In this document: positions 11,601 through 49,133 of the stretch, one piece after another | Layout of the letters: each line of letters opens with the position of its first letter | Position numbering within the stretch: the stretch's first letter is position 1 | Source: Gammaproteobacteria bacterium | Lineage (GTDB): Bacteria > Pseudomonadota > Gammaproteobacteria > UBA1113 | Reading direction: 5' to 3' | DNA length: 64,000 bases | Assembly: GCA_965230425.1 (NCBI GenBank) | Contig: CBDDKW010000008.1 | Location: 73,667-137,666 of the forward strand | Notes under the pieces: model-generated | Database searches by the model: none | Seen by the model: only the letters and a program-made list of their open reading frames with translations | What the model was told of the DNA's origin: nothing | Position numbers and translations under genes: made by a program

Positions 11601-14600
11601 TAATAAATTAGTCAGTTCATCAAGAAAATCGTAATATAACCAGAGGTAGGGTTGTCCATCAATATTTGTCTCACGAATTTTAATTAATGTCAGTTGTATG
11701 GTTTTTATAGTATCAGTTAGCTCATCTGATAGGCATTCTTTGAGTAAATCATTCAATGTTGCTGCTGAGTAAAGTAAATCATAATCAATGTATTTTATTA
11801 TCTGTAAATAATTAATGTTATTTACTAGCTGAAGAAAGCTATTACATAGATTAAAAACAGTCGTGTGTGAGGATGTTGCCAATGTTCTCGATATAGACAG
11901 ATAATCACGATAAAATAAGGTTTCTGCATCAGATGAAATAAGCTCTAACAGCGATTGTTTTTTAAAAGTATCTAGTGTTAGCTGCTTATGAACGTAAATT
12001 TCCTTTGCAAGTAAAAAACGCATGAATTGATCGCGTCGTAATGATAGGCAACTACGGAAATCATCGAGATAGAGTTTTCCATCACGGTAAAAGAATAAGT
12101 GTCCGGTAAGTTCATCAGCGTTAAGCCATTGTAATCGGTCTGTTATTGAGGTGAGTGTAGTAAGATTGAGGCGAAGTCTGCATACTTCACTATTGAATTT
12201 AGCAATCAGAGCTTCAAAATAGCCTCTCACAAAGATAATGCGACCAGAAGAGATGATTGCATCAGGACTAATAATAAAAGCGTATTCTAATGATGGTCGC
12301 GATGTTTGTAACAAATCTATAAATTGACTTAATAATAGACACTGGTATTCAGCTGGTGGCTGACCCAAGTAGTTTTGACACGACTGCAAGACCTGTTTGA
12401 GTTGAGTATGTAGCTCCTCAGGCTGCAGTGGTGTACTCTGCATAAAGCTATTTTCAGTATATAGCTCTTCTAACTTTTGTGGTGTCTCATTGATAACAGA
12501 AATGGGACGTAATTCGTTATCGTGATCAATTAACTTTTGCAAGTTTTCATTGCTAAAACGTAGAGAAGTTATCCAGGATTGAATTTCATCATGTTGCCAG
12601 CACCACGCGTTAATATCTGCATTGATACTTTGCGATAGGGCAAAAATACGTATGAATGCGATACGATAATTTATAGACTCTTCATCAGTGAGCAATTCAT
12701 TTAAATACTCATCTAAATCTATGGAAAATAAATCATCATCAAGTAGCTTATTAATGAATGCATCAGCTCTGCTGTTGATTACAGGGAAAATTTTGCTGCG
12801 TAATTTATCTATTCTCTTTAGTGTAGCGGGTTCAAGTGCGATTATGTGTTGTGTGAGTCCGAAAAATAAATTGATAAGACAAGTCTGATAAGGACTAAGT
12901 CGGTTATGTGCTTTATGGATGTTACGAGCTAAATTTCCAATAGTTTCACCTACGTTAATATGTGCCTTTAATATGTGAAGTCGCATAAACGCAAGTTGTT
13001 TGCCTTTAATATTAGCGTCGGCATGGGCTTTAATGATGGATTGTTGATATAGATAGGGTAATGACGTATTTTTGAGATTATCTAATAAAAACTTATAAAT
13101 ACCAGCATAACTTATTACATGAGCATAACTTATTACATGTTTTGTGTCGGGTACGTTTGTGAAAATCTCCCAGATAAGTTTAAGCTCAGCCAGTATAGGT
13201 TTAACGACTACGGTGCTATCACCGGGGTTGTTTGGTATGCTAGTGAGCTTATCAATATAACTGTTAAATAAATCTTTCATTTTTTCTATGAAAATTTTAT
13301 TAACATTTATGGATATATGATGTCTTTTTAAGTAAATGATTATCTGATTTTGCAAGAAGTTTATGAGATTGATAACATATTCTCGAGCTTCATCGTTGTG
13401 GCTAAGCGTCTCTAAATTAGCAAAGCTAAGCTTTTCTATTAATGCGGTATTTAGTGTCTTGTTAGTAGTGAATGTTGCAGCAGCATACTCTAGTTTCTTT
13501 GATATGATAACTTCATTATCATACTCAATATTTGCAAAGGATTCGGTAAGCGATAAGGGAAGTGTATAATGTTGACCTGAAAAAGTGTTCCAAGTTAGTA
13601 TTTCAAGGACATTCAGCACTACATCAGGATTGTCTTTTGCACGTAATAGACTATGAAGCTTTAATTTTAATGGTGGGTAACAATCAAGTAGTAGCGCAGG
13701 TTCATAAAAATAAACTGCATGCTGCCAGCAGTAATAACGTATATTAGATTCTGCATGTGTACAATAGCTGAGTAACACCCATAAAGTCACTGCCCATAAC
13801 TTTTTTACTTCAGCGGTATTGGGAAGGTCATTGTTATCATGATGATTTAATATTTCTAAAAATGCTAATAGACTATCGGGTGTGTTAGAGATATTAGACT
13901 TAGCAATGCTAATTATAAGGTTAGGATTTACTACGTTATCTAAAAGATATAATGCTAATAAATGCCAAGATAAGCGAGATTCGCATGATAATTCGCCTAA
14001 GTTATTAATAAGCCCATCTTGTTGCGCATGAGCTATACGTAGTACCTGTTTTTGAATATTAGATGATAAGCTTTCAAACTCAGTTGACAGAAGGCGTGCA
14101 CTACCCAAGCAAGCAGAGGGAGCAGGGTGCTCGAGTGTAGCATATAAAAATGGAAGTAGTTCGGGTGTTTCATCTATTAGCTCATCTGTAGATATTATAT
14201 AGTTTAAAAATCTTATTATAAATTCACTAGTAAAATCAGAATGATTTTTGATGACAAATTGAATAGCTAATTGGTTAACCACAGATAGATCTTGCACATT
14301 TTCTAAAATAGATACCTTCGTTTGCTTTAATTCTAATATATCAGCGGTCTGCTCATGAAATAGGCTAAATATTATATTTCCTTTAACTAAGTTTGTTTCA
14401 TCAGTTAGTCTTTTAATGATTCTTTTAGTGGTTGGATGACTGGGCGCTACAAAATAATTAACTAATTTCCTCGTGATGCATTCAAGCCGTGGCAATCCAC
14501 TAACAAGTTCTAGTATAGTGTCTAACATTCCATCATTTGTAGTTTGGTATAGGGATATTAATACATCAGCAATTGCTGCTAAGTTTTTTTCACTATATTG

Positions 14601-17600
14601 GCCTATATAAGTTAATAATTCTAAGCTTTTAGTTTTTGTTTTTAGGTTGGGTGAAATCAGGTTTCTAGACAGTGCTTCTGCAATAAGTTTGCTGTGTTTA
14701 GATAATATTGATTCCTCTTGATCTAACTTATCTGATGCCTCAGATTCCTGAGACTCTAATTCTTGTTCTGACATCGCTGTTAAATAAAGTGCATTTGCTT
14801 GCTCAAAACGGTCATCGGCATTGAGACTATACAAATTTTCAGTGGTCATATCAGTTTGACGACTATCTTGCATATCATGGGTTTGTAAAACTTGATATAG
14901 CCTGCCTTTTTGATCAATATCTAATTCTCTTTGATGTAGTTTTAAAGTTGTAACAATGTCATATTCGCTATTAGTCAATAACCTTTTTTCACCTAAATAT
15001 TCGAGATTTATAAGTAACTGCTCGAGTATAAACATCTTCTCAGTATTTTCCGCACTGGGCAGTCGATTAAGGTATAAGTCAATAATTCCAGTATTACGGC
15101 CATGCTCTGTAATAAATTTAGCAATATGACTCTCTGTCTCTAGGTATAATTCTGTAGATTTAGTAAAATCAAGAATTACATGAAAGCAGGTAAGTATAAG
15201 TGCTGCATCATACCCTTGCCTTGAAGAGTGTGCCAAGATAAACTGAAGAGCAATAAATTTTAAATCATTTGTTTGCAGGCAATCGAAGTATACTTTAACT
15301 AATAATTTACTAGATGATTTAAGCAGTTTGAGTAAAATATTGTAATATTCATTATAGTTCTCATTACCAAAATCGAATTGTTGGTTGAAATCAAAAGATG
15401 TGTGTGCCAAAAAATAATTTAAGATGTATTTTAAAACAACCGTTAGAGAGAGTAGAGTAGGTTTGTTTTCAATGATAGTTTTAAGTATTACTGGCGGCAA
15501 ATCCAAATGAGCTATATCAGAATCAGAAAATACTTTTCTACTACCGTTATGAGCTGTAAAGTAAATAACATATTGTGCAGAGATTTTTTGAAAATCAGCG
15601 TCACTTAATAGACATTGTTTCGTTTGTAATAGTCGAGTAATACTATTACTGTAAGTAAAGTTAGTTGCTGTTCCTATATGGCTAATGAGTATTTTTTTTG
15701 TTTTTTTTGTCAGCTCTGAGTTATTAAATCGTAATGCATTACGTGCGATGGCTAGCATAAGTGATAGTTCAGCGTCTTTTAGTAATGAATAACATAATGT
15801 ATGTAAAGCAGACAGCATACTTTCATTGACGCCAGGAATATGCTTTAAATGGAAAATAGCGAAATTATCAGCGTGTAAACATATTTCTATATGCGAGCGT
15901 AATAATGCAAGCAATTCATTCCAATAGTTAGCGTTGATACCTTTATTTTTAACTAACAGATTGATGGCAACCCAGCGTAGCAGAGGAGTGGGAGGATGAA
16001 CGCATTGTTGTAGTGTACTAGAGTTATCAACAATAGATTCTATCACTTTTAATGATTCGTCTTCAAGAACTAAACCACGTAAATGGCGATACAATTTACA
16101 TGCATGTTGACTAAGATTATCATCGAGCAAGTGTGAAATGAATGTATGCATTACAGCTTCATTAACAATATCTTGTTCAATTAAAAAAATTAGAGCGCTA
16201 GCTTGTACCTCTGAAGACGTTGATTTAAGCTGATTTAAACTTAGCTCAGTGATATCTAGTCCACGCATGGATGTTAAGCCATGCTGCCATACTGCATAGT
16301 TTGTTTGGGCTTCTTCAACTGAGTTGAAGCGAAATTTTAGTTTTGTCAAAGAATTACTGACATCATAATGTAATACTTGCGCTAACTCTAAAATATTATT
16401 TTGCTGTTCCCGTGAGCCCCGCGTAAAGGTTTGATCACAGTGCTGTTCAAACCACAGTGTCACATGAGGTGAGGTGAGAAGTTGGCGAGATTTTTCAATA
16501 ATTAAAGCAGAATAAGTGGAATATTCTGCGGATGAAAATCGCAGGGCATAAATCGTAATAAGCTGCTTGAATAACACACACTCGATGTCTTTATCTGATA
16601 AGATTAACTCAATACTTAGGGGCGTACGGTTGCTTTCCTTATTCCTTTTTTTAATATTTTCAATGTATTTATAGATTTCTATGAAAATAACACAGGTCTC
16701 ATGTGAGGAAATCGGTTGATTTAGAACTGTAATGAAAGTTTCTTTAATTAAATTAATGTTATCTACGTAGATAATAAGTTTGTCGAGTAAAATAAATAAA
16801 GGGTATTTAGCCGTAACATCAGCTCTAGCAGTCAAAGATTTGGTATAGACTAAAGATGTAAGCTGCTGTAATAACGTATGGTCGTAAATGCCTAACTCTA
16901 TGCAACAATTTAAGCCAAAGGCTTTAATTGATAAATCATTATGCTGCCATACATGTAGGAGTCGGCTTTTTATTGTTGATTTATCCACACAACGATGTTC
17001 GAGTAAATTGTGCCAAACAGCTTGCCGTAGCTCTTCTTCGTTAAGGGTCAGATAAGTATAATATAAATCTTGGACTGTAGGGTCAAAACTTAATTCGTTA
17101 GCAAGTTGTTCTATGGCATGAAGACGTTCAGTACATGGCAAATTTGAATCATTAATAATCGTGATCCATTTTTCAGAATTTTCTTGTTTGGCAACAAGCT
17201 GAGCCAGCAAAAAACTTGCCCATGTAGGTGTGTTTTTATTGTCAACAATTTTTGTTAATTGTCTTTGTAATCCAGAATACTCTACTAATTTTGGGGTGAA
17301 TTGTAGACAGTGTATATAGGGCTTACGATATTTTTCTAATTTAGAATTTGTATCCGTATGATAGATTAAATGTTCAGTAAATATAAAGAGTTGACTACAA
17401 ATATAGTCGCGTGAACTTTCAAATGTGTCATTTCCTAGATTAGAATAAGGCGAGATTTCATCACGGCTCATTACTGCTAATAAGCCACGGTCATCAGCAC
17501 TCCATATACTGTCCCAGCCTTCATCTAATGCCCGCATAACTAGGAATAGTAGTTCAGGATCTTCATGCAGTGAGCCAGTATAAAGCTTTAATAATTGTAC

Positions 17601-20600
17601 TAAATAAATTTCCAAAATATCTCTTTTAAGCAAGCCAGCAAAGAATTGATACATGACTGCATAACGGTCATCACGAATATTTTTTATCAAGTTATGGATT
17701 TTTTTGTCGTCATCTGTCTCTACTGCTTCATTGAATAATTCTTTAAGCCGTAACGCTGCGAAGTATTCTTGAAAAGTTAAATGAATAAAGGAGAAATTTC
17801 TTTGTGCGATTTGCTTTCCGTCAACGTCGATGACTCTGTCATTGAGTATATTGATGAAACCTAAGTCGCCAAGCTCATCAAATAAGCTCTCATTTAAGTC
17901 AAGTAGTTCTAAATCCGTAGTATTTATAGCAGCTATGATATCATCTTCGGAAAAAATGATTTTATTGTCCAGCAGACATTGATAAGCTAGCCTGGCTAAC
18001 ATAGGTTTTATTTTTTTTAGTAGTTTCGCATAGTTATTTTTATGGGGTACTCTTTTTGCAGAAATTTCATATAGGCGATCGACTATTTTTGTATAGAATT
18101 GGGTAAGGCTAGTGTCTTTTGCACCCTCCCGATTACTTTCAAACATCCCACGTTGCCAAATTATACAGGTTAACGCAAGATTCACAGGAATGTGGCAAGT
18201 AGACCACAAGCTTAAATTGGCACGAAGTATTCCCGTAAGTATACTTGCATCTTCTCCAGAGCGATTATTTAGTTGAAAAATTTTACTAATATAATCTTTA
18301 ATATCGCGATTATTAAATCCCATTAATTGATAACGATTTTCTGGTTTAATTGTTGCTGTTTGTTTTGTACTTCCTACTGCATGTGGGCGAGATGTTATGG
18401 CTGAATTTTGTTTTGTAAGTAAGGATTCAAGAAATTTCTTCTTCCGTTTACGTAAGTGATCTGATGAATTTTCTATTTCTTCTTTTAAATCAGCAATTAT
18501 TTCGTCCAATCCATCCCAGATAAAGTAGCTTTTGTGCGTTCTCTCATCAAGAATCAATGCAATTGAATTTGGGTCTAGATTTTCATACACTATCGTTGAT
18601 TTTTTATTTTGGATTTGCATTTTTATAGCGTGGGAAATGAACGCAGCTATTTCTTGGTTTAAATATTTTTCTAAATCAGCATCGGATGCATGTAAGTACT
18701 TTTCACTAAATTTAAATGTGTTAATATGGCGTAGTTGTACCCAGAATAGATATTTAAAATCCTTCAGATAAGTGCCTAAGGCCCATTCATGGGCTAAATG
18801 CTTACAAAAGGTACTCTTACCGATCCCTGCACGACCAATAACCAATAGTTGCTCAGAACAAGTAAAAAGGTTACTCATGCTGACTTCGGCGCCTGATTGA
18901 AAAATATCTTCATAAGAATGAATTGCTTCTAGATGCCCATGAGTTCTATTATTACTCGGAGAATTTTCTGAGAGGCGTTGAGTTTCAAATTCAGTTTGCT
19001 TTTTATCATCAACGATTGCTAAATGAATATAGCTATCTCTCACGTGTTGAGGCGTATCATAAATAGGTAATTTTATGGTGGCTTCACGGTGGTAGTAGTC
19101 TTTTAAATCTCGCGTTACGGCATCAAGTTTCTCATCCAGCAGAGAAATGGGTTTAGTTGTTAATGAGATAGCATCTGGTATAGGTAGCTGTGGTGATGAA
19201 TGATATGGTCGCTGTTCAGTGACGAATGCTGCGGTAAGAGATTGGTTACCTTGAGCTAGATGGTGGTCAATTTCATATTTACCCATCCCATAGATACTGT
19301 GCATAGGAGAACTATAAGGTGCTTGATTCAGTGTTGTGAGTGAGGGTGATTTTTCTAGTTCAATACTGCATTTTTGATCGGCAACTACATCCAATTCTAT
19401 TTCTGACAATGATTGCGGTTGTTCTTGTTTTGTGGATAAAGTTACTGTCTGTGAGCTAAGAATTTGTACTTCGTCGCAAACATCTTGACTTAGATGGGTA
19501 AAGTTGCCGAAGAAATTTTTCTTCTTAGCTACATCTTGTTCAAGAATAGAGTAACTTCTTAATAAATTAATACAAGTCGTTGGTTCGACGGCATTATTGA
19601 GTAGGGTTATATTATTTTGTAGAAGAAATGCATGTAGCTTGTCGCCTAAACTGAGCAGTAGTGCATCAGTATTCTCAAAAAAGTGTATGCTTGGCAATAA
19701 GTGTAAATGACATAAAATAAATTCACGAATTCTCGGTTCTTTTCTAACTAACGGCTTTCTAAATTCTAAACAAAAGTAACAAAAAAGTGCGTGGTCTAAT
19801 TTTTCTTCGTGCTGGATTGTGTGAACAATATGTTCCTGTGTAAACGTGTATTCGTCGAATAAATTGGCTAATTCAATTAATGAACAATAGTCGTTGTCTG
19901 TGAGGTAATAGTTAAGTAGCTCACGTCTTGTTTGTTGAATGTTTTCTCGCATTTCACATGAAGTAATAGATATAATTCTATTTAAACTCTGTTGTAATAT
20001 AACAATATTGTCCCGGTTTATGGGATTTTCGGTTTGCATCAATATTTCAATGACGGTATGGATATAACGGGTAATAAATTGTGATAATTGCTGTAGTATG
20101 GTTTCAATTGCCTGGATGCAGCCGCCAAAATTTTGGTTATGGTGTTGACTACACTTAGTCAAGTGTGAAAATATTTTAATAATTAATGTGCTTTTGAATT
20201 CTTCATTTTTAATAGTAGGGATTACTAAACTAGCAGACTGTCGCTCGAGTAGATTATCACTGTAAATACTATCATATAATATAGTCAGCAACTCATCACG
20301 AGAGTATTCGCAATCATGAAATTGCGCAAGTAGCAGGTAAAACTCAATCAGTACATAATCTAAATTTACCTGTCTTATCTCACTGTGTATTATCCTGAAA
20401 TTTTGTTCTGTAAATAGCTCACCTATATCATGCAGGTACCTCGCGCTATTGCGAATAATATTGGGATGATGTTGAGCTAGATTTTGTTGTAGGGTTGTTA
20501 GTATGGTAGGTTGCTGAGATACACCTAATAATTTCAGACCATCCCAAGCAAATTGGCTATGACTTTCAGTGCTGCGCCCAGTTAATATGGCATAGGTTCG

Positions 20601-29007: not shown

Positions 29008-30138
29008 TTAGGAATAAACATGAATCAACGTGCTTTTAATCAAAGGATCGATAATTCTATATTCGCCAGAAGCCAGCCGCTCAATATAATCTAATTCTTC
29101 TAAAGCCTTTAATGCTTGTACAACGGAGCTACTTGTTAAACCTAACCTTAATAAGCTTTCTTTACTAGATAAGCTATTATTGTTGCCTGAAGCTATTTCA
29201 CAGAGTAATTGTATTTGTGTTGATGAGCGACGCGATAATTCAAGCCGTATGTCTTTATGTTTTTGTAAAATATATTCATGCCATGCTTTTTCAACATCAC
29301 TTATTGTCGGTAACTTATTATCACAGCGTAACCAGACTTCCGTACATAGTAAATATACATAGCGCGGATGACGATCAGATAATGTTAGAATCTTTTCAAT
29401 GATATTATCCGGGAGTACTTTCCCAAGTGTCTTTTGTGATACTTTTTTCAGATAAGTGACGTAGTAAGATGCATCAATACGATCTAATCTGATCTCATCA
29501 CATAATGAGTATAAAGGACGAGAACGATCGTTAAAAATTTTATTGAGCATTTTACGGCTGCTGCCAGAGAAGATAAATACTACATGCTTACATTCTTGGG
29601 CAAAATGTCTTACTGCGCCTTCAATGGCTTTACCAGCGTTAGTTTCTAAAATTTCTTGGAATTCATCGATATAAATGATAGCTTTCATTTTTCGTTTTTC
29701 TAGGATGAACTCTAGCGCCTCTAATACATCAAGTATATTCTGTGGTACAGTTTTTGGATTATGGGGAATTAATTCTAGCGTGGCTCCTTTTATACCTATT
29801 GTCCACTTCTTATCAGCTTTTTTGAAAAATTCTCTTAAGACATTAAACCACTGTTCTGGACCTGAGGTAATTTGTTGTATAACTGAGCTGACGCCAGTAA
29901 TAATTTTATCGCCAATATCAATTTCATTAATTGCAACAAATAAATCGATTTCACTGTGTGGTAATTCAGTTTTTTGAATGGCATGTTTTGCTAGGCTCGT
30001 TTTTCCATATCGCCTAGGGGCTATTAAGACTGTGTGTGCGCCTTCATGAATGTTGCCAATTAGTCGTTTTAATTCTTTAAGCCTATTGAAAAAAGGAACG
30101 CCTTTTGCGACGCCCTTAGGGAAGTATCGTCTAAACAT
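29008..30138 (-). CDS. ATP-binding protein, archaeal-type ATPase (PF01637/DUF234-like) with C-terminal wHTH
   Basis: 376 aa with Walker A VLIAPRRYGKTSL and Walker B-like IIYIDEFQ. The C-terminal ALKALEELDYIERL resembles a winged-helix domain. Confidence 0.65.
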   Translation of the reverse strand: MFRRYFPKGVAKGVPFFNRLKELKRLIGNIHEGAHTVLIAPRRYGKTSLAKHAIQKTELPHSEIDLFVAINEIDIGDKIITGVSSVIQQITSGPEQWFNVLREFFKKADKKWTIGIKGATLELIPHNPKTVPQNILDVLEALEFILEKRKMKAIIYIDEFQEILETNAGKAIEGAVRHFAQECKHVVFIFSGSSRKMLNKIFNDRSRPLYSLCDEIRLDRIDASYYVTYLKKVSQKTLGKVLPDNIIEKILTLSDRHPRYVYLLCTEVWLRCDNKLPTISDVEKAWHEYILQKHKDIRLELSRRSSTQIQLLCEIASGNNNSLSSKESLLRLGLTSSSVVQALKALEELDYIERLASGEYRIIDPLIKSTLIHVYS

Positions 30139-30196
30139 CTTTACCTCAAATATATGCTGGCCATGCTATTTAGGTAAGTATAACTCAATTACATCT

Positions 30197-30275
30197 AAGT
30201 TAAAGCCTTTTAAGTTAAAACGATTTAAGTTAAAGCCCTTTAACTTAAAGAGCTTTGAGTTAAAGCATTTTAACC
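30197..30275. repeat. 15-bp tandem repeat array (~5 copies: aagttaaagcctttt / aagttaaaacgattt / aagttaaagcccttt / aacttaaagagcttt / gagttaaagcatttt)
   Basis: Directly visible in the promoter region upstream of the ATPase gene (start 30138) and downstream of prlC. It produces the artefactual periodic ORF KLKPFKLKRFKLKPFNLKSF at 30050..30289. Confidence 0.85.
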
Positions 30276-30401: not shown

Positions 30402-32438
30402 TTAAGCAATCCCACTATGTCTCAATAAGGCATCAATATTGGGTTCACGTCCCCGAAAAGCAACAAATAAATCCATGGGTTTGGCAGAACCGCCTTTTTC
30501 CAAAATGCAGTGTAAGAATTCCTGGCCTGTTTGTTGGTCAAAGATACCGTTTTCTTCAAATTTAGAAAAAGCATCACTAGAGAGAACTTCCGCCCATTTA
30601 TAACTGTAATAGCCAGCAGCATAACCCCCAGCAAAAATATGTGAGAAACTATGTTGAAAGCGATTAAATTCAGGAATAGGTACAACAGCAGTTTCTTTGC
30701 GTACAGCATCTAAGGTTTCTTGTATGCGAGCACCTTTTTCAGGGGAGTAATTTTTATAAATATAAAAGTCGAATAAGCTAAATTCCACTTGACGTACCAT
30801 TTGCATGGCAGATTGGAAGTTCTTAGCCGCGATCATTTTATTAAATAATTCATCAGGGATAGGTTCACCTGTTTCATAATGCCCAGAAATAAGTGCTAAA
30901 GCTTCTTTTTGCCAACACCAATTTTCCATAAATTGACTAGGTAACTCTACTGCGTCCCACTCCACACCATTAATACCTGAGATATCTAAATGGTCGATTT
31001 GGGTCAGCATATGATGTAGACCATGACCAAATTCATGGAATAAGGTAATGACCTCTTCATGAGTGAATAAAGCGGGTTTATTTGCAGAGGGGCCGGCAAA
31101 ATTACAAACTAGATAAGCCACTGGGATTTCAATATCACCTTGATGATTAATATGACGTTGACGACAATCATCCATCCAGGCACCACCGCGTTTATTGGCC
31201 CGGGCATAGAGATCAATATAAAATTTACCGCGTAGCTGGTGTGTAGCATCATAAACTTCAAAGAAACGTACATCAGGATGCCAGGTATCAATATTTTTAA
31301 CTTCATTGATGTTCATACCATATAATCGCCCAACAGTAGCAAACATCCCGGATAATACTTTGTCCTCTGGAAAATAAGGGCGTAATTCCTCTTGCGATAA
31401 ATGATATTTATGTAATTGTAATTTCTCACTGTAGTAGGGGATATCCCAAGCTTTTAATTCAGGCATATCATGATGTCGTGCTGCAAACTCGCAAAGTTCA
31501 GCGAAGTCTTGTTTTGCCTCTGCATAAGAACGTTGGCGTAGATCCTTAAGAAAATTAATCACGGTATCGCTATCATCTGCCATTTTCGTTGCCAGCGAAT
31601 AATCAGCATAATTATCAAAACCCAGTAGCTGAGCAATTTCATGACGACAGCGAACAATGTTATTCATTACTTCAGAATTATCCCACTTTCCGGCATTCGG
31701 ACCTTGATCTGAAGCGCGAGTAGCATAAGCAGCATAAATCTCTTCGCGTAATGAGCGTGAATCGGCATAGTTCATCACCGCGTAATAGCAGGGAAATTCT
31801 AATGTCAGTACCCAGCCTGATAGATCACGTTGTTGGGCTACAGCATGTGCTGCTTGTTTCGCATGCTCTGGCAAACCGGTTAGTACTACTTCCTCAGTAA
31901 TATGTTTGGACCAAGCATCAGTGGCATCTAAGAGATTTTGCTCAAATTTAGTAGTTAATTCAGATAACTCTCGTTCTAATTGTTGAAAATGCTGCTTGTC
32001 AGTATCATTCAAGCCAATGCCAGATAAACGAAAGTCGCGTAGAGCATCATTAATAACTTTCTGTTTTGTAGCATCAAAGTCTGCAAATTCAGGTGACTCA
32101 CTGATAGCAACGAAAGCGTGGTATAGCTTTTTATTATGACCTAACTCGGTGTGATAATCTGATAACTTGGGCAAGCATTGCTGATACGCTGCTCGTAATT
32201 CTTCTGTATTAACCACTGAGTGCATGTGTAATACGGGTGACCAGGTATTGTGTAAGCGAACATCTAGTAATTCTAAAGGATGAATCAAGTTCTCCCAAGT
32301 AAAACTATCTTGCTCTAATAATCTATTAATTGCTTGGCGGTTTTCCGCTAAAATATGATCAATAGCCGGTTCTATATGCCCAGGCTTGATTTCACTAAAT
32401 GCAGGTAAAGAATGTGATTGCAGTAACGGGTTTGACAT
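30402..32438 (-). CDS. prlC: Oligopeptidase A (M3 family zinc metallopeptidase)
   Basis: 678 aa with the HEFGHGLHH zinc-binding motif and overall M3A architecture. The N-terminal MSNPLLQSHSLPAFSEIKP is typical of OpdA. Confidence 0.92.
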   Translation of the reverse strand: MSNPLLQSHSLPAFSEIKPGHIEPAIDHILAENRQAINRLLEQDSFTWENLIHPLELLDVRLHNTWSPVLHMHSVVNTEELRAAYQQCLPKLSDYHTELGHNKKLYHAFVAISESPEFADFDATKQKVINDALRDFRLSGIGLNDTDKQHFQQLERELSELTTKFEQNLLDATDAWSKHITEEVVLTGLPEHAKQAAHAVAQQRDLSGWVLTLEFPCYYAVMNYADSRSLREEIYAAYATRASDQGPNAGKWDNSEVMNNIVRCRHEIAQLLGFDNYADYSLATKMADDSDTVINFLKDLRQRSYAEAKQDFAELCEFAARHHDMPELKAWDIPYYSEKLQLHKYHLSQEELRPYFPEDKVLSGMFATVGRLYGMNINEVKNIDTWHPDVRFFEVYDATHQLRGKFYIDLYARANKRGGAWMDDCRQRHINHQGDIEIPVAYLVCNFAGPSANKPALFTHEEVITLFHEFGHGLHHMLTQIDHLDISGINGVEWDAVELPSQFMENWCWQKEALALISGHYETGEPIPDELFNKMIAAKNFQSAMQMVRQVEFSLFDFYIYKNYSPEKGARIQETLDAVRKETAVVPIPEFNRFQHSFSHIFAGGYAAGYYSYKWAEVLSSDAFSKFEENGIFDQQTGQEFLHCILEKGGSAKPMDLFVAFRGREPNIDALLRHSGIA

Positions 32439-32895
32439 GATGAATACCTAATTTTAAACGGATATGAAAAATTCAGCTAAAGACTAAAACCCTAGCTTAA
32501 ATCTAGCTGAAATACAAACAAGAGATGCACGGAGTAGCTGAATAGTGGGTAAAAATATGAAATGTTCGTTTAAAGCTAAATATAGCAATTGAAGTCGATA
32601 TCCGCCTATCAAGGATAAACTAAGACATACCAGGACCGTTATATCTTATTAAATAACAGTGTGAACAGCCGTAAACTAACAGAAAAAATATAAAAAAATC
32701 ACGTTAAATTTTTCTTAAAATAAAATAAAAGTTTATATTTCACATCAAAAATAGTTTTTTTATAAAAAAACTGCACAAATATGTACAAAAAGCTTGCAAA
32801 TATTTGTTTTTTTATTATACTCACATGCGTTTTTGCATTTCGTTTTATGAACAAGTGCAGAAATTGTTTTTATTTTTACTATACGAGGTTTGATA

Positions 32896-33554
32896 TGGCA
32901 CGTAAGAAAACTGCTACATCCAAAAAAGTAACGCAAGCGAAAGCTAACCCTGTCACTGCATTAAAACAAAAAATGCAAGCAGCTAAAGCCAAGCATGCGC
33001 AAGTACAAAAGCAACTAAAGGACCAAGTCGCTAAATTAAAAGCGGAGCTTAAAACCCAAGTTGCTAAAGTAAAGGATGCAGCTTATCAGCAAGGTATGCA
33101 AGATGCATTAACCATGGTTGAGAAACGTGTTCAAGCACGTGCTAAATTAATGGTTGCGGCTGAGAAGAAAATTGAAAAGGAATTAGCAAAGAAATTTGTT
33201 GTTAAAGCTAAGAAAACGGCTAAAAAAGCCAGTGTTGCAAGTAAAACAGCAAAAAAAGCTAAAGTAAGTACTGCAAAACGCGGTCGTAAGCCTGCAAGTG
33301 CTAGCAAATCAGCAAGCACGGCAAGCAAAACCGTTAAAAAAGCTAAAGTAAGTACTACAAAACGCGGTCGTAAGCCTGCAAGTACTAGCAAATCAGCAAG
33401 TACTGCAAGCAAAACCGTTAAAAAAGCTAAAGTAAGTACTGCAAAACGTGGTCGTAAGCCTACTATTGCAAAAAGCCGTACTACAAGTAGCGCAGTAAAA
33501 GGACGTAAAGTTGCTAAAACTGCAAAACGTGCAGCTAGCAAATCAGCTAAATAA
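32896..33554 (+). CDS. Histone H1-like, lysine/alanine-rich DNA-binding protein (Hq1/Hc1/AlgP-like) with internal 28-aa tandem repeats
   Basis: Start at ATG 32896, preceded by GAGGT. The ORF tracker's 32781 start runs through an AT-rich promoter. The protein is rich in K/A/T/S with KKAKVSTAKRGRKPASxSKSASTASKTV repeated about 2.6 times. Confidence 0.75.
33252..33470. repeat. 84-bp coding tandem repeat (~2.6 copies) inside the histone-like gene. It is a potential VNTR.
   Basis: The unit aaaaaagctaaagtaagtactgcaaaacgcggtcgtaagcctgcaagtgctagcaaatcagcaagcacggcaagcaaaaccgtt is repeated at 33252, 33336 and 33420 (partial) with a few substitutions. Confidence 0.85.
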
Positions 33555-33690
33555 TTACATTTGATCTCTCGAGGCTTGCCTCAAGGGATTGTATGTTTAG
33601 CATTTCTCATAGAAGGCTGGCATTGCCATTCGCAATGCCAGCTTTTTGTGGTTTAATAGGACACTGTTGCCTGATTATAAGGACATACAT

Positions 33691-34212
33691 ATGAATATCA
33701 GATCCTTTCAAAATATTAATCCTCACATTGATCCTTCCGCTTATATTGACCCCGCTGCAATGGTGATTGGTGAAGTAAACATCGGGGCTGATACCTCAGT
33801 ATGGCCAATGGCAGTTATTCGTGGTGATGTGAATCATATTCGCATAGGTGCACGTAATAGCATCCAAGATGGCTCAATTCTACATGTCACTCATAAACGT
33901 GAACAAAATCCCACAGGCCAACCATTGATTATCGGTGATGATAATACTATCGGTCATCGGGTTACTTTGCATGGTTGTACGGTACATGATCTTTGCTTAA
34001 TTGGCATGGGATCAATCATTATGGATGGCGTTGTACTCGAATCGGAAGTGATCTTAGGTGCTGGTAGCTTAGTTACTGAAAATAAGATATTAGAAAGTGG
34101 TTATCTTTATATGGGTACGCCAGTTAAAAAAATACGCCCCTTAACAGCAGAAGAGAGAGAGTTCCTACCTTATAGTGCGCAGCACTATGTGAAAGTGAAG
34201 AATCAGTATTAG
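33691..34212 (+). CDS. Gamma-class carbonic anhydrase family protein (YrdA/PaaY-like hexapeptide-repeat protein)
   Basis: Left-handed beta-helix hexapeptide pattern (IDPSAYIDPAAMVIGEVNIGADTSVWPMAVIRGD..IRIGARNSIQDGSILH). Start at MNIRSF, preceded by AAGGA. Confidence 0.8.
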   Translation: MNIRSFQNINPHIDPSAYIDPAAMVIGEVNIGADTSVWPMAVIRGDVNHIRIGARNSIQDGSILHVTHKREQNPTGQPLIIGDDNTIGHRVTLHGCTVHDLCLIGMGSIIMDGVVLESEVILGAGSLVTENKILESGYLYMGTPVKKIRPLTAEEREFLPYSAQHYVKVKNQY

Positions 34213-34243: not shown

Positions 34244-34382
34244 TTGTCATTTCGAATAGTGGCGATAGCTGCCGTGAGGGATCTCCCGATGATTTGACTG
34301 CCTAGTTATAACATAATTTCATGTCAGCTAAACTATCAGGAGATTTCCCGCTGCGGTTTACAGCCACAACTCGAAATGACAA
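34244..34382. repeat. Dispersed MITE/REP-like element, full copy with ~50-bp imperfect inverted arms (34244-34298 and 34334-34382)
   Basis: Left arm ttgtcatttcgaatagtggcgatagctgccgtgagggatctcccgatgatttgac. Right arm tatcaggagatttcccgctgcggtttacagccacaactcgaaatgacaa, roughly the reverse complement of the left arm. It lies between yrdA and aroE. Confidence 0.75.
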
Positions 34383-34404: not shown

Positions 34405-35247
34405 TTATGAAGATATGTTCCTGATTTGTGTAATAACTCGATTTGTCTCCGGACGAACTTGACGCCATATATAAAATGCATCAGCGGCTTGTTCCACAAG
34501 CATGCCTAAGCCATCATGGCATTGCTGCGCGCCCATTTCTTTTGCCCAATTGAGAAAGGGGTATTCTTTCTTACCATACATCATGTCATAACAAACCGTT
34601 GCAGAGGTAATAATGCTAGCGGGTAATGCCAAGCTGCTATTTTGTAAGCTCGCAGTCGTTGCATTAATCACTAAGTCAAAGTGCTGATTTAATATAGCAT
34701 TATCAGGATCCATACTACATGCCTGTATACTGCCCGCAGATTTAAACCAATCTGCTAAATCATGGGCCTTTGTCTCTGTGCGATTAGCCACAACAAATAA
34801 TTGTGGCTTTTCGGCAAGTAGAGAACCAGCCGCGGCAAAAGCAGCACCACCGGCACCTAATAGTAATATCTTTTTATTATGAACAGTGTACTGATGATTT
34901 TGAGTTAAATCGCGTATTAGTCCTGAACCATCGGTGCTGTCACCACTGAGAATGTTATTTTCACCCACAATGCTCATGGTATTAACTGATTTTGTTAGTT
35001 CGGCTATATCACTGCGCTGTTGTGATAAAGACCATGCCTGTTGTTTAAACGGCGTGGTAATATTAAAACCTTTACCACCTGAAGTAATGAAGTCAGCAAC
35101 AGTCTGCTCAAACTCGTCAAGCGGTGCAAGTATTTTTTCATAATGAATATGCTCGCCAGTTTGCTCAGCAAACAGATGGTGAATTTGTGGTGATAGACTA
35201 TGTTCGACTGGGTGGCCGATGACGGCATAACGATCAGGGTGTGTCAT
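34405..35247 (-). CDS. aroE: Shikimate dehydrogenase
   Basis: 280 aa with an N-terminus YAVIGHPVEHSLSPQIH and an NAD(P)-binding GAGGAAFAAA motif. Its start overlaps the priA stop (TAATG). Confidence 0.9.
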   Translation of the reverse strand: MTHPDRYAVIGHPVEHSLSPQIHHLFAEQTGEHIHYEKILAPLDEFEQTVADFITSGGKGFNITTPFKQQAWSLSQQRSDIAELTKSVNTMSIVGENNILSGDSTDGSGLIRDLTQNHQYTVHNKKILLLGAGGAAFAAAGSLLAEKPQLFVVANRTETKAHDLADWFKSAGSIQACSMDPDNAILNQHFDLVINATTASLQNSSLALPASIITSATVCYDMMYGKKEYPFLNWAKEMGAQQCHDGLGMLVEQAADAFYIWRQVRPETNRVITQIRNISS

Positions 35248-45134: not shown

Positions 45135-45422
45135 TTAATTCTTTTGATCTATAAATCTAATATCTAGTTTTTTTCCTAGGGCGTGAGCAATTTTGAATAA
45201 TGTAGATAGACGAATGTCCTCTGCATGATTTTCAAAGCGCGATATTGCAGGTTTATGAGTGTGTAAACGATCTGCTAATTCTTGCTGACTTAAACCACTA
45301 TTAAGTCTGAGTTGTTTTAGTATAATACCAATTTTAAATTCATTAAATCCTTCATCATAATCAATTGCAAATTCAAGATCTTTTGATTTACGCTTTTTTA
45401 TATATGATTTTAAGTCACTCAT
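45135..45422 (-). CDS. XRE-family HTH antitoxin (HigA-like) of a higBA/Gp49-type TA pair
   Basis: 95 aa with an HTH ([30 protein letters not shown]). Its ATG overlaps the TGA of the upstream toxin fragment (ATGA). Confidence 0.75.
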
Positions 45423-45934
45423 GATAGTCTCCGCTTTAAGTAGTCACCTTTACGTTTTTCAGCCAATAAGATTTCAGATTTTGGCGTTTTTTGTGTTTTC
45501 TTCTGAAATCCATTAGTAACAATATATATACCCATAGTATCTCATATTTAGGGCTTTCTAGCATGTTCTTTTCCGCCAGCTAATGACTTTAAATTTTGCC
45601 AATAGCCAACTATTACCTGCAATTTAAAGTCTTTATCTAACGAAAAATCTCTGTCCTATAAAACCCTAAATATGAGATACTATGGGTATAAGTCTTTAGC
45701 AAAAAAGAAGCCGAGAAGTCTAAAAATATTATTACCCTGTTGAATTCTGACTTCCCAAATATCATCTGAGCCAACGATTTTTTTAAAATACTGTCTAGGT
45801 AATACAGGTAATTCTTCAATAAGTTGTAAGACCCAGATAACTTTTTGAGCATGTTTGGCTGATAAACTATCTAAAAATTCAGCTACAGGACATAGCCCTT
45901 GTTCTGTTTTGAAAAAATTGACTGTACGTTTCAT
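45419..45934 (-). pseudogene. HigB/Gp49-like (RelE/ParE superfamily, PF05973-type) toxin gene disrupted by a MITE insertion
   Basis: N-fragment 45680..45934 reads MKRTVNFFKTEQGLCPVAEFLDSLS...IWEVRIQQGNNIFRLLGFFFAKDLYP*. C-fragment 45420..45526 reads ..[36 protein letters not shown]. Removing 45529..45687 plus one TA joins them in frame as ...[23 protein letters not shown]..., matching the Gp49 consensus. Confidence 0.85.
45527..45689. mobile_element. Non-autonomous MITE (~159 bp) with 25-27-bp perfect terminal inverted repeats and a TA target-site duplication (Tc1/mariner or IS630-type footprint)
   Basis: Left TIR ta|tacccatagtatctcatatttaggg (45527-45553). Right TIR ccctaaatatgagatactatgggta|ta (45663-45689) is its exact reverse complement. 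No internal ORF. It is flanked by TA on both sides, and excision restores the toxin ORF. Confidence 0.85.
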
Positions 45935-46031
45935 ATTTTAATGTTAATATATATGTTAACCTTTGTAAAGTACAAGACACTTAAATCATTGTTAAGTATA
46001 CTTGCGTAATGATGCTAGTATGGAGTGCTAA

Positions 46032-47108
46032 ATGACAACAAATCACGATATTATCTTTGAAGAAATTTCCGGTAATGGCGGTAGTGTTGGACTCATTACC
46101 CTCAATCGCCCAAAGAGTTTGAATGCCTTAACCCATGCTATGTGTTTAGCACTGGATAGCAAGTTAGCATACTGGCAGGATAGCAAGCATATAAAAGCCG
46201 TCATTATCCGTGGCGCAGGGGAGAAAGCCTTCTGTGCCGGTGGCGATATCCGCCACATTTACCAAAAGGGTAAAGAGCACGGTATTGAAGAAGCACGCCA
46301 ATTCTTCCATGATGAGTACCGTATGAATCATCGCATTCATAATTTCACTAAGCCTTATATCGCCTTACTCGATGGTATTACCATGGGGGGAGGCGTCGGC
46401 GTCTCCATTCATGGCAGCCACCGCGTTGCCACAGAGCGATTTTTATTCGCTATGCCTGAGACCGCTATTGGCTTCTTCCCTGATGTGGGTGGTTCTTATT
46501 TTCTTTCACGTTTGGCGGGTGAGCTAGGTATTTACCTAGGTTTAACCGGTACGCGATTGAATGCCAGTGATGCCATGTTTGCTGGCTTAATTAACGAGTT
46601 TACTTCTAGTGTACATGTGCATGAAATTATTGATGCCATTGCTGGAACTAATTTTTCAGAAGAAGCAAAAGAGCGTGTAACGCATATCTTACATGAATTT
46701 TCAGTAAAGACTGAATTATCTGAACTTGCCACTCATAGTCATCAAATTGATGAATTTTTCTCTGCCGATACAGTTGAAGCAATCATAACTCGCTTAGAAC
46801 AGGATAATAAACCCTGGAGCCAAAAGGCTTTATCACAGTTAAAAACAAAATCACCTACTAGTATGAAAATTACATTACGTCAGATCCGAGAAGGCGTTGC
46901 TTTAAATTTCGATAGTTGCATGCAAATGGAGTATCGACTTTGCCAGCGTATTTTAGCTGCTCACGATTTTTATGAAGGTGTACGCGCTGTACTACTTGAT
47001 AAAGATAACACACCCATATGGCAACCAGCAACGCTAGCAGAGGTAGATGAGGCGACTATTGATAGTTATTTTCAGCCTTTAGAGGAAGGTGAACTGCTGT
47101 TTAATTGA
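46032..47108 (+). CDS. 3-hydroxyisobutyryl-CoA hydrolase (crotonase-fold, HIBCH)
   Basis: 358 aa with crotonase-fold motifs (ITLNRPKSLNALT, AVIIRGAGEKAFCAGGDI, IALLDGITMGGGVGVS). It is larger than a hydratase, with the typical HIBCH C-terminal extension. Confidence 0.85.
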   Translation: MTTNHDIIFEEISGNGGSVGLITLNRPKSLNALTHAMCLALDSKLAYWQDSKHIKAVIIRGAGEKAFCAGGDIRHIYQKGKEHGIEEARQFFHDEYRMNHRIHNFTKPYIALLDGITMGGGVGVSIHGSHRVATERFLFAMPETAIGFFPDVGGSYFLSRLAGELGIYLGLTGTRLNASDAMFAGLINEFTSSVHVHEIIDAIAGTNFSEEAKERVTHILHEFSVKTELSELATHSHQIDEFFSADTVEAIITRLEQDNKPWSQKALSQLKTKSPTSMKITLRQIREGVALNFDSCMQMEYRLCQRILAAHDFYEGVRAVLLDKDNTPIWQPATLAEVDEATIDSYFQPLEEGELLFN

Positions 47109-47137
47109 TAATACGCTGTTATAAATACGACAGTGTA

Positions 47138-47255
47138 TTGTCATTTCTAGCGTAGCGAGAAATCTCCCGATGATTTAGTGAACATGAACAGAGGTTTATT
47201 CTAAGTAGTCAAATCATCAGGAGATCCCTCATGCTTCACATTCGGGATCTCCTGA
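47138..47255. repeat. Dispersed MITE/REP-like repeat copy with an internal deletion in the left arm and a diverged right arm
   Basis: Left arm ttgtcatttctagcgtagcgagaaatctcccgatgatttag. Right arm gtcaaatcatcaggagatccctca... It lies 30 bp after the HIBCH stop. Confidence 0.65.
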
Positions 47256-47282
47256 ATACTTAGGTAACTATAACAAAGAAAA

Positions 47283-47948
47283 CTACTCTATAATATCAAC
47301 TGACTTACGATTCAATACATGCTTCAAATAGTAAGCTTGATGCTTTGACAACTTTGCCACAGATAGGTAATTATCAATAAATTTTTCTATCCCATAATTT
47401 TTAAACGCAGCGATATCGGTATCATAGAATATCATATGCCGTAAATTACGAATACGATGCCAAATATTCAAAGGCTTATGACGAACTTTCAGATCTGCAA
47501 TATCAATTAAATAAAATTGTGCTTCATCATTTCGCAAAACATTACCTAAATGAATACCACGAAAAAAAATCCCTTGATAGTGTAACTGGGCGATATAAGT
47601 AGCAAGTTCAGTCAGAATTACTGGATTTGACGCGGAGACTAAATGGCGTACTTCCTCACCTGGTACTTTGGGATAGATCACCAAGTGTATATTCTCTTCA
47701 GGACATGAAAACGTTTGTTCAACATGAACAGCCGGAATATGTAATTGTGCCAAACGGCGAGAATTACGACTAAAACGTTGTGCGTGAGGGCGTAGTTTAC
47801 TAGAAGAGAATTTCTTCTTGCGCGGGTAGAATATTTTCACAATCTTATTATCGGCCGTTTGCAAAATTTTGGGGCCGTACTTGCAATCTGCTAAAACGAC
47901 CGCTGACTCGCAAAGAGCCTTGTATTCAAGCGCTGACATCTTTTGCAT
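47283..47948 (-). CDS. Lipopolysaccharide-kinase (Kdo/WaaP/InaA)-like protein-kinase-fold protein (tentative)
   Basis: 221 aa. GIFFRGIHLGNVLRNDEAQFYLIDIADLK resembles the catalytic-loop/DFG region of Kdo/RIO-type kinases with substitutions. Confidence 0.4.
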   Translation of the reverse strand: MQKMSALEYKALCESAVVLADCKYGPKILQTADNKIVKIFYPRKKKFSSSKLRPHAQRFSRNSRRLAQLHIPAVHVEQTFSCPEENIHLVIYPKVPGEEVRHLVSASNPVILTELATYIAQLHYQGIFFRGIHLGNVLRNDEAQFYLIDIADLKVRHKPLNIWHRIRNLRHMIFYDTDIAAFKNYGIEKFIDNYLSVAKLSKHQAYYLKHVLNRKSVDIIE

Positions 47949-48125
47949 AAGGATATAGAACCATTCCCAACTAGTCTGTTCGATTCTGCCATTGTAGGCG
48001 CCGCAACCGACCCACTATCGGCCAAAATCAGCCAAAATAAAATCCCCGAGGCTTGCCTCGAGGATTTTATTTAACGATAATAGAGCTTATCTTAACACAC
48101 TATTAGATATAAGCCCGGAATTTTT

Positions 48126-49133
48126 ATGCAATCAACATACACAGGTCAATTCCCGCAAACCCGACTCCGGCGGTTACGCCAAAATCCACAAGTTCGTCGC
48201 CTTATTAGTCAAGCGCACTTGTGCAAGGAAGATTTTATCCTGCCACTCTTTATCCGCCATGGTCAACAGCAGAAACAGCCAGTCGCAAGTATGCCAGGCC
48301 ATTATCAATGGAGTGTGGATACCTTAGCGGCGGAAATAGAAACAATTGCTAAACTAGGCATACCCGGAATATTACTATTCGGTATTCCAGAACATAAAGA
48401 TCCTGCTGGTACAGATAGCTATTGTGAACAGGGCATTATTCAGCAAGCTATTCGTCTGGTAAAAGACGTTGCACCTGAATTACTGGTGATTACCGATGTG
48501 TGTTTTTGTGAATACACCGACCATGGTCATTGTGGCATTATGAATGACAGAACTGGCCAAATAGATTTAGACAATGATGCCACACTTGAGCTATTAGCAA
48601 AGCAAGCATTGAGTCATGTTCAAGCAGGTGCTGATATAGTAGCGCCCAGTGGTATGATTGATGGCATGATCGGGACTATTCGCACTGCTTTAGATGCAGA
48701 GAATTATCAGCATATCCCTATCATTAGTTACGCTGTAAAATACTGCTCAGCTATGTATGGACCTTTCCGTGAAGCGACAGAGGGAGCACCGCAATATGGT
48801 GATCGCAAAAGCTATCAAATGGATCCCGCTAATGCGGCAGAAGCCTTACGCGAAGCCGCGCTTGATATAGCTGAGGGTGCTGATATGCTCATGGTCAAAC
48901 CCGCAGTCAACTACCTTGATATTATTCGTGATGTAAAACAAGCACATCCTGGTGTACCACTATCGGCTTATCAAGTGAGCGGTGAATATGCCATGATCAA
49001 AGCTGCCGCAGCTCAAGGTTGGATCGATGAGCGCAAAGTTGCCTTAGAACAATTACTCTCAATTAAACGCGCCGGTGCAGATTTTATTTTTAGTTATTTT
49101 GCTAAAGATGCTGTGAATTGGTTGGCAGATTGA
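48126..49133 (+). CDS. hemB: Porphobilinogen synthase (delta-aminolevulinic acid dehydratase)
   Basis: RLRRLR N-terminal motif, a metal-binding Cys cluster (DVCFCEYTDHGHCG), the active-site Lys region (MVKPA) and SGEYAM. Confidence 0.93.
   Translation: MQSTYTGQFPQTRLRRLRQNPQVRRLISQAHLCKEDFILPLFIRHGQQQKQPVASMPGHYQWSVDTLAAEIETIAKLGIPGILLFGIPEHKDPAGTDSYCEQGIIQQAIRLVKDVAPELLVITDVCFCEYTDHGHCGIMNDRTGQIDLDNDATLELLAKQALSHVQAGADIVAPSGMIDGMIGTIRTALDAENYQHIPIISYAVKYCSAMYGPFREATEGAPQYGDRKSYQMDPANAAEALREAALDIAEGADMLMVKPAVNYLDIIRDVKQAHPGVPLSAYQVSGEYAMIKAAAAQGWIDERKVALEQLLSIKRAGADFIFSYFAKDAVNWLAD

Follow-up and report, generated by a model that had tools for sequence, protein, structure and literature searches.

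The locus considered here lies on the minus strand between positions 45135 and 45934 of a 64-kb stretch of contig CBDDKW010000008.1 (the window, by which we mean the whole stretch analysed), and comprises a toxin gene of the HigB/Gp49 family and, overlapping its end, the intact gene of an Xre-type helix-turn-helix (HTH) antitoxin. The toxin gene is present in two parts. The 5' part (45689..45934, minus strand), recognized from the list of open reading frames (ORFs) and its translation, holds codons 1-82 of a restored Gp49/HigB-family toxin of 117 amino acids (aa); the 3' part (45419..45526, minus strand) holds codons 83-117 and the stop codon in the same frame, and carries GFxKKTQKTP, the most conserved motif of the family. 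Between them lies an inserted, non-autonomous element of 160 nucleotides (45529..45688, no strand assigned), resembling a miniature inverted-repeat transposable element (MITE), whose bounds follow from its arms and from the excision length that fits the homologues. It is bordered by a TA dinucleotide on each side (45527..45528 and 45689..45690, no strand assigned), the two being a putative target-site duplication; the left copy is part of codon 82 (TTA) in the restored gene. We consider it very probable that a MITE-type element was inserted into the toxin gene and truncated the toxin.

As it stands, the toxin ORF runs from 45934 to 45680 on the minus strand and encodes 84 aa ending in ...FFFAKDLYP, with its TAG stop (45682-45680) inside the element. 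The original prediction, made from the same DNA, that this ORF stops two codons into a 27-bp repeat with a perfect inverted copy was confirmed: the two copies agree at 27/27 nt, and the ...KDLYP end followed by the stop lies in the right arm. It had also been stated that the C-terminus of the toxin persists downstream and ends in an overlap with the HTH gene, and this holds, the 3' piece ending in the ATGA that overlaps the start of the HTH ORF at 45419-45422; the accompanying statement that the C-terminus is in another frame was wrong. The two halves share a frame because 162 = 3 x 54, and a single-frame translation from 45934 to 45419 reads through both toxin pieces with four in-frame stops between them. 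An ATG at 45535-45533, within the left terminal inverted repeat (TIR), opens a 38-aa ORF across the toxin C-terminus, and there is no indication that this ORF is expressed. The 84-aa protein is identical to an entry in the public protein collection (P0001), where it is a singleton, and that database protein is the truncation product.

Excision was modelled in silico. Deletion of 162 nt in any of three registers (45529-45690, 45528-45689 or 45527-45688) yields one 117-aa ORF, with the empty-site junction GCTAAAGACTTATATATTGTTACTAATGG. Other lengths were tried as well: deletions of 160 nt, which assume a duplication of TATA or AT, and of 161 nt both shift the frame, and a deletion of 159 nt adds a residue absent from every homologue. 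Only the 162-nt excision fits the homologues. The proposal that excision restores the ORF is thus correct for a removal of 162 nt; the removal originally proposed, 45529..45687 together with one TA, amounts to 161 nt and results in a frameshift. A restored frame is weak evidence alone, as a multiple of three has a prior of one in three, and it is the fit to the protein family that is decisive. The translation of the excised locus, which had been suggested for alignment to Pfam family PF05973 (Gp49), matches it over profile positions 1-89 of 90 with E = 3.4e-23 and 81.9 bits (cut-off 23.9), whereas the truncated 84-aa product covers profile positions 1-60 of 90 only.

Comparison with intact homologues places the insertion exactly. 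The restored toxin aligns without gaps to nine homologues (62-71% identity). Wherever these nine are invariant it has the same residue, also downstream of the break: F89, K91-K92-T93-Q94-K95-T96-P97, E100, I101, E105, R107, K108, Y111 and R114. A homologous uninterrupted operon from another organism (L082) encodes a 116-aa toxin and a 93-aa HTH antitoxin whose genes overlap by 4 nt. At the DNA level L082 shows 69% identity and runs without a gap across the insertion point (GACTTATATATTGTT in the window, GATCTATTTGTTGTA in L082), and it serves as a homologous, not orthologous, empty site. The other 119 homologues among the matches listed (of 1924 matches) are 113-138 aa long, the lengths of uninterrupted genes. 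Since L082 is uninterrupted and the listed homologues have these lengths, the 160 nt are an insertion and not a conserved feature of the family. The gapless fit to the nine homologues and to L082 bears out the original claim of a discrete, TIR-bounded insertion at a TA in a HigB/Gp49-like toxin gene. The KTQKTPK motif aligns to the solved HigB toxins 6AF3 from S. pneumoniae (E = 2e-4) and 7NBU/7AWK from M. tuberculosis. An orthologous empty site was not found in the loci around relatives of the neighbouring 3-hydroxyisobutyryl-CoA hydrolase gene, none of which has the toxin-antitoxin pair there; the best relatives of this hydrolase, about 50% identical, come from Coxiellaceae, Legionellaceae and alphaproteobacterial metagenome-assembled genomes (MAGs).

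The inserted sequence has the anatomy of a hairpin MITE. Positions 45527-45553 and 45664-45690 (TATACCCATAGTATCTCATATTTAGGG) are inverted copies, perfect at 27/27 nt and extending to 35 nt at 94%. Within them, the left TIR (45529..45553, plus strand; TACCCATAGTATCTCATATTTAGGG) is 25 nt of perfect repeat, or 27 nt with the flanking TA, and the right TIR (45664..45688, minus strand) is its perfect reverse complement. The window contains exactly two occurrences of the 25-nt TIR core, and no match to it turned up in 100 shuffles that preserved the dinucleotides; the two arms are by far the strongest inverted repeat in the window within a range of up to 600 nt. The element begins with TACCC and ends with GGGTA, its end type being TACCCATAGTATCTCA, and its GC content is 34%, compared with 38.7% for the window. 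It has no coding capacity: all six frames contain three or more stops, and no stretch longer than 35 codons is open. The two halves are mutually inverted well past the TIRs. Of the 82 positions aligned between them 61 match, and the score of the inner arms is 12, where shuffled sequences give -8.4 +/- 3.7. As DNA, the element folds into a single long imperfect hairpin (-36.1 kcal/mol, z = -11). No promoter-like sites facing outward and no terminator-like sites were found inside it in the promoter and terminator scan.

These inner arms bear on the possibility that the element is a one-off remnant, that is, a full-length insertion sequence (IS) that landed in the toxin gene, had its interior later deleted in place and survives as a private relic. 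The element was seen as a single copy in all the searched data, as such an origin would have it. However, the two halves are inverted far beyond the TIRs, well above the shuffled expectation. Hairpin MITEs typically show this, but an IS, whose left and right interiors are unrelated, should not; and single-copy status is established for the 64-kb window only. We regard this origin as unlikely.

The hairpin could also be no mobile element at all, but a palindrome that arose locally through template switching or an error in replication, or else a part of the operon, as a regulatory hairpin or a conserved structured RNA. In support of this, the element within the toxin mRNA gives a very stable fold (-87.1 kcal/mol over 221 nt, z = -10.8). 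On the other hand, the element does not resemble its flanks, and its boundaries are sharp, with a TA next to each of them. The intact L082 operon lacks it, and the listed homologous toxins have the lengths of uninterrupted genes. The original prediction had itself named a conserved structured RNA as the alternative to watch for, and no Rfam covariance model matched anywhere in the window at gathering score. Below threshold, the element matched only plant microRNA precursor families, which are long hairpins, at 38 bits where 119 are required; these matches were rejected as evidence of an RNA family. A non-mobile origin has thereby been refuted in large part already, and we give it hardly any credence.

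A further hairpin-shaped stretch was noted elsewhere in the window, at 34244-34382 (about 139 nt), in the gap between ORF 33646-34212 (plus strand) and aroE at 34405-35247 (minus strand). Its 20-nt arms are 90% complementary and 99 nt apart, and its DNA fold has z = -3.7. In sequence it does not resemble the element at 45529, and no obvious duplication flanks it; it may be a bidirectional terminator or a further small element of palindromic type.

At the insertion point itself there is a direct repeat with a period of 162, TATA being found at 45525-45528 and again at 45687-45690. The symmetric ends permit two solutions, a 160-nt element with a 2-bp TA duplication or a 162-nt element without duplication, and the excised product would be identical in both. 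Since DDE transposons with TIRs generate duplications, a TA duplication is the parsimonious choice. The TA supports a target-site duplication and does not prove it, and in this sense we infer the duplication.

Several results weigh against a transposed MITE inserted at a duplicated TA. The putative 2-bp duplication sits within an ATATATA run, where a TA is expected by chance, and is weak evidence alone. Repetitiveness is a defining property of a MITE family, and a second copy of the element was not found within the 64-kb window. The 20-nt TIR core has no exact match in 185,579 species-representative genomes and none in viral contigs; blastn of the whole element against plasmids and phages returned only matches of 25-33 nt with E ~0.5, nothing significant. 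A scan of JGI metagenomes gave one match to the 20-nt core, with 21 nt shared and no similarity on either side. The six-frame peptides of the element, concatenated and compared with 5.8 billion protein clusters, found none at E <= 10, a weak test for an element full of stops. Transposase families were not matched by any of the 30 window ORFs of at least 150 aa that were scanned (the 5455-aa ORF being left out), and no IS was found with ends matching the element. It follows from the negative searches that the element does not occur widely; they have no bearing on how many copies its own genome contains.

In the metagenomic match (L001; contig SDBT01401778.1, positions 42-62), 21 nt of an AT-rich, 1.8-kb contig are identical to the inner part of the TIR (ACCCTAAATATGAGATACTAT). 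By our own estimate, about one chance match is expected for an AT-rich 20-mer in a metagenome collection of that size. The match is probably due to chance, and at most represents a related element of which a single end is present.

Published descriptions of bacterial MITEs set these results in context. Such elements measure 100-400 bp and encode no protein; their TIRs are 4-30 bp long, they terminate in TA and they form stable stem-loops (PMC5896051, PMC2229807), a description with which the size, TIR length, TA ends and stem-loop of the present element agree. Their copy number can be as low as one per genome, and gene inactivation by MITEs has been documented (PMC10969869).

An IS630/Tc1-mariner enzyme, as originally proposed, is the most likely type of transposase to have moved the element, the TA alone being the basis of this attribution. 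Insertion almost exclusively at TA, duplication of the TA, and sufficiency in cis of ends of about 24 bp have been established experimentally as a signature of the IS630 family (PMC2170065), and RUP is a precedent for a bacterial MITE driven by IS630 (PMC2229807). That the MITE-like element was instead moved by a different enzyme, of the IS5 group or unknown, is possible, with clearly less than an even chance. TA is the only link to IS630, and its duplication is not exclusive to that family. Some IS5-group elements also generate duplications of 2-4 bp. The Correia elements have the same architecture (about 155 bp, TIRs of about 24 bp, TA duplication and TA termini), and no matching IS is cited for them in PMC2229807; most bacterial repeat elements have either not been compared with the ends of ISs or shown no similarity to them, and many are without an identified IS partner (PMC2229807). 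An IS630-like ORF was likewise not found among the window ORFs scanned.

The long form of the Correia (NEMIS) elements of Neisseria is the closest architectural match among known systems. Like the present element, it combines a length of about 155 bp with perfect or nearly perfect TIRs of about 24-26 bp, a TA duplication (a putative one here), TA termini and no continuous ORF, and its transcript forms a long stem-loop that is a reported target of RNase III (PMC2229807); a hairpin transcript is predicted here too. This likeness is one of architecture. In contrast, Correia elements exist in many copies and we see one, their long form is almost exclusively intergenic and the present copy is intragenic, and the host lineages differ, ours being probably a deep-branching, Legionellales-like gammaproteobacterium.

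The RUP element of Streptococcus pneumoniae and other MITEs derived from IS630 are likewise small TIR elements at a TA, for which mobilization in trans by an IS630-family transposase has been proposed (PMC2229807, PMC2170065). RUP differs in being linked to IS630-Spn1 by TIR similarity, whereas no partner IS was found here in the collections searched, and in having 9 contiguous base pairs of TIR against 25-27 nt here. The only MITEs that we found described from Legionellales in the literature are QMITE1 and QMITE2 of Coxiella burnetii, an intracellular gammaproteobacterium. They are hairpin elements whose TIRs measure 21-29 bp, and they overlap or alter annotated ORFs (PMC5896051). However, QMITE2 is flanked by direct repeats of 7-9 bp, QMITE1 is about 400 bp long and both are present in 45-78 copies, in contrast to the 2-bp TA, 160 nt and single sighting here; moreover, in C. 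burnetii the genes concerned are functional and only their 3' ends are affected, and the present element cuts at codon 82 of 117. Finally, the Rickettsia palindromic elements (RPEs) are palindromic, 100-150 bp long and located inside protein-coding genes, and the length of the present element with its putative duplication, 162 nt, is a multiple of 3. RPEs are translated in frame as part of the protein, in contrast to the four in-frame stops, the stops in all six frames and the truncation observed here.

The following course of events would account for the locus. A non-autonomous DNA transposon would have been inserted at the TA in TTA|TATATT, that is, in codons Leu82-Tyr83-Ile84 of a chromosomal HigB/Gp49-family toxin gene, presumably by a DDE transposase acting in trans, with TA as the target that it duplicates. 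The stop codon supplied by the element, three codons in, would cut the toxin to 84 aa, with the loss of 35 C-terminal residues that include the invariant F-x-KKTQKTP...E-I...E-x-RK motif. Because these residues are lost, the truncated toxin is most likely inactive. The antitoxin would still be readable from the operon transcript, and its expression may well continue. The insertion is probably recent, since the TIRs are identical and neither half of the toxin gene has a second lesion.

The locus also admits a different role, in which the element is a currently active member of an undescribed, lineage-restricted MITE family and, by its place in the toxin gene, serves a toxin-antitoxin or abortive-infection module as a reversible gate. 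Precise excision by a transposase at the TA would then recreate an intact toxin beside an antitoxin that is already expressed, and the MITE would be a switch and not a dead-end knock-out. The perfect TIRs, the unblemished toxin halves and the lack of relatives of the element in the searched collections are compatible with both parts of this proposal and lend it no positive support; we hold the existence of such a gate to be very improbable, and its operation by precise excision equally so.

Insertional inactivation is the preferred reading, and as such the locus is a clean example of a toxin inactivated by a miniature transposon that leaves an orphan antitoxin, which is one expected route for the decay or taming of a chromosomal toxin-antitoxin module. 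In biological terms it is an ordinary gene knock-out that raises no new question on transposition or on toxin-antitoxin biology: MITE insertions that inactivate genes are well documented, as are TA-flanked hairpin MITEs since the Correia elements. The analysis also draws attention to a mobile-element sequence that lacks annotation, in a gammaproteobacterial lineage that is poorly sampled and probably intracellular.

The antitoxin gene (45135..45422, minus strand) encodes an Xre-type protein of 95 aa with a match to Pfam HTH_3 at E = 2.8e-13, and its ATG overlaps the toxin stop in ATGA. Aligned by eye, it lines up along its full length with the 93-aa L082 antitoxin, in keeping with the original observation that the insertion had left it intact. 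A GGAG lies 6 nt upstream of its ATG, and with this Shine-Dalgarno sequence of its own the antitoxin is not dependent on translational coupling. Transcription of the antitoxin must now pass a 27-bp perfect RNA stem, and such stems are reported targets of RNase III in Neisseria (PMC2229807). A candidate operon promoter (45941..45969, minus strand), TTTACA-17-TAACAT, lies upstream of the toxin ATG. It is a match to consensus only; it is the sole promoter-like site upstream of that ATG, and promoter-like sites of the region are no commoner than in shuffles. An imperfect palindrome, GTTAACATATATATTAAC (45941-45969, minus strand), overlaps the -10 element of the candidate promoter and is plausible as a putative antitoxin operator. 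In its organization the locus is similar to the HigB/HigA type II modules, which pair a PF05973 toxin with an Xre-HTH antitoxin: the toxin gene is upstream, the overlap is 4 nt, and the restored toxin matches PF05973 end to end. It differs from them in that the toxin gene is interrupted, which would make the module functionally an orphan antitoxin. A second HTH_3 protein, of 154 aa, is encoded at 55312-55776 (plus strand), with no Gp49-like partner seen adjoining.

The locus belongs to the core chromosome, with argS, priA, aroE, an acyl-CoA dehydrogenase gene, hemB, ahcY, metK and tkt nearby; murI is directly downstream of the antitoxin gene, and the 3-hydroxyisobutyryl-CoA hydrolase gene directly upstream of the toxin gene. 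The window also encodes proteins without an NCBIfam match. The closest ArgS, from a Legionellales MAG, is 64% identical, and since this value and the roughly 50% identity of the hydrolases are the highest found, the host is probably a deep-branching, Legionellales-like gammaproteobacterium without close sequenced relatives. An 818-aa protein encoded at 23007-25463 (minus strand) combines ankyrin repeats with a patatin-like phospholipase domain in a eukaryote-like architecture. Ankyrin-patatin proteins are typical of intracellular bacteria, and this protein together with the ArgS match suggests a host-associated, Legionellales-like organism. At 46032-49133, the hydrolase gene is close to hemB, and the same linkage is found in dozens of alphaproteobacterial, Reyranella-like loci (L006-L081); the alphaproteobacterial relatives of the hydrolase are as close (about 45-50% identity) as those from Legionellales, and the hydrolase-hemB pair may have been exchanged between lineages.

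Other repeats were observed in the window. An intergenic array at 30196-30274, between ORF 29008-30138 (minus strand) and the peptidase M3 gene at 30402-32438 (minus strand), consists of about 4.7 units of a 15-nt repeat (TAAGTTAAAGCCCTT), also forms nested inverted repeats, and has the look of a repeated protein-binding site. An 84-nt tandem repeat at 33237-33461 (2.7 copies, 92% matches) lies inside ORF 32781-33554 (plus strand), which has no Pfam match, and is read in frame as a 28-aa repeat. Finally, a single ORF of 5455 aa (5682-22049, minus strand) occupies a quarter of the window.

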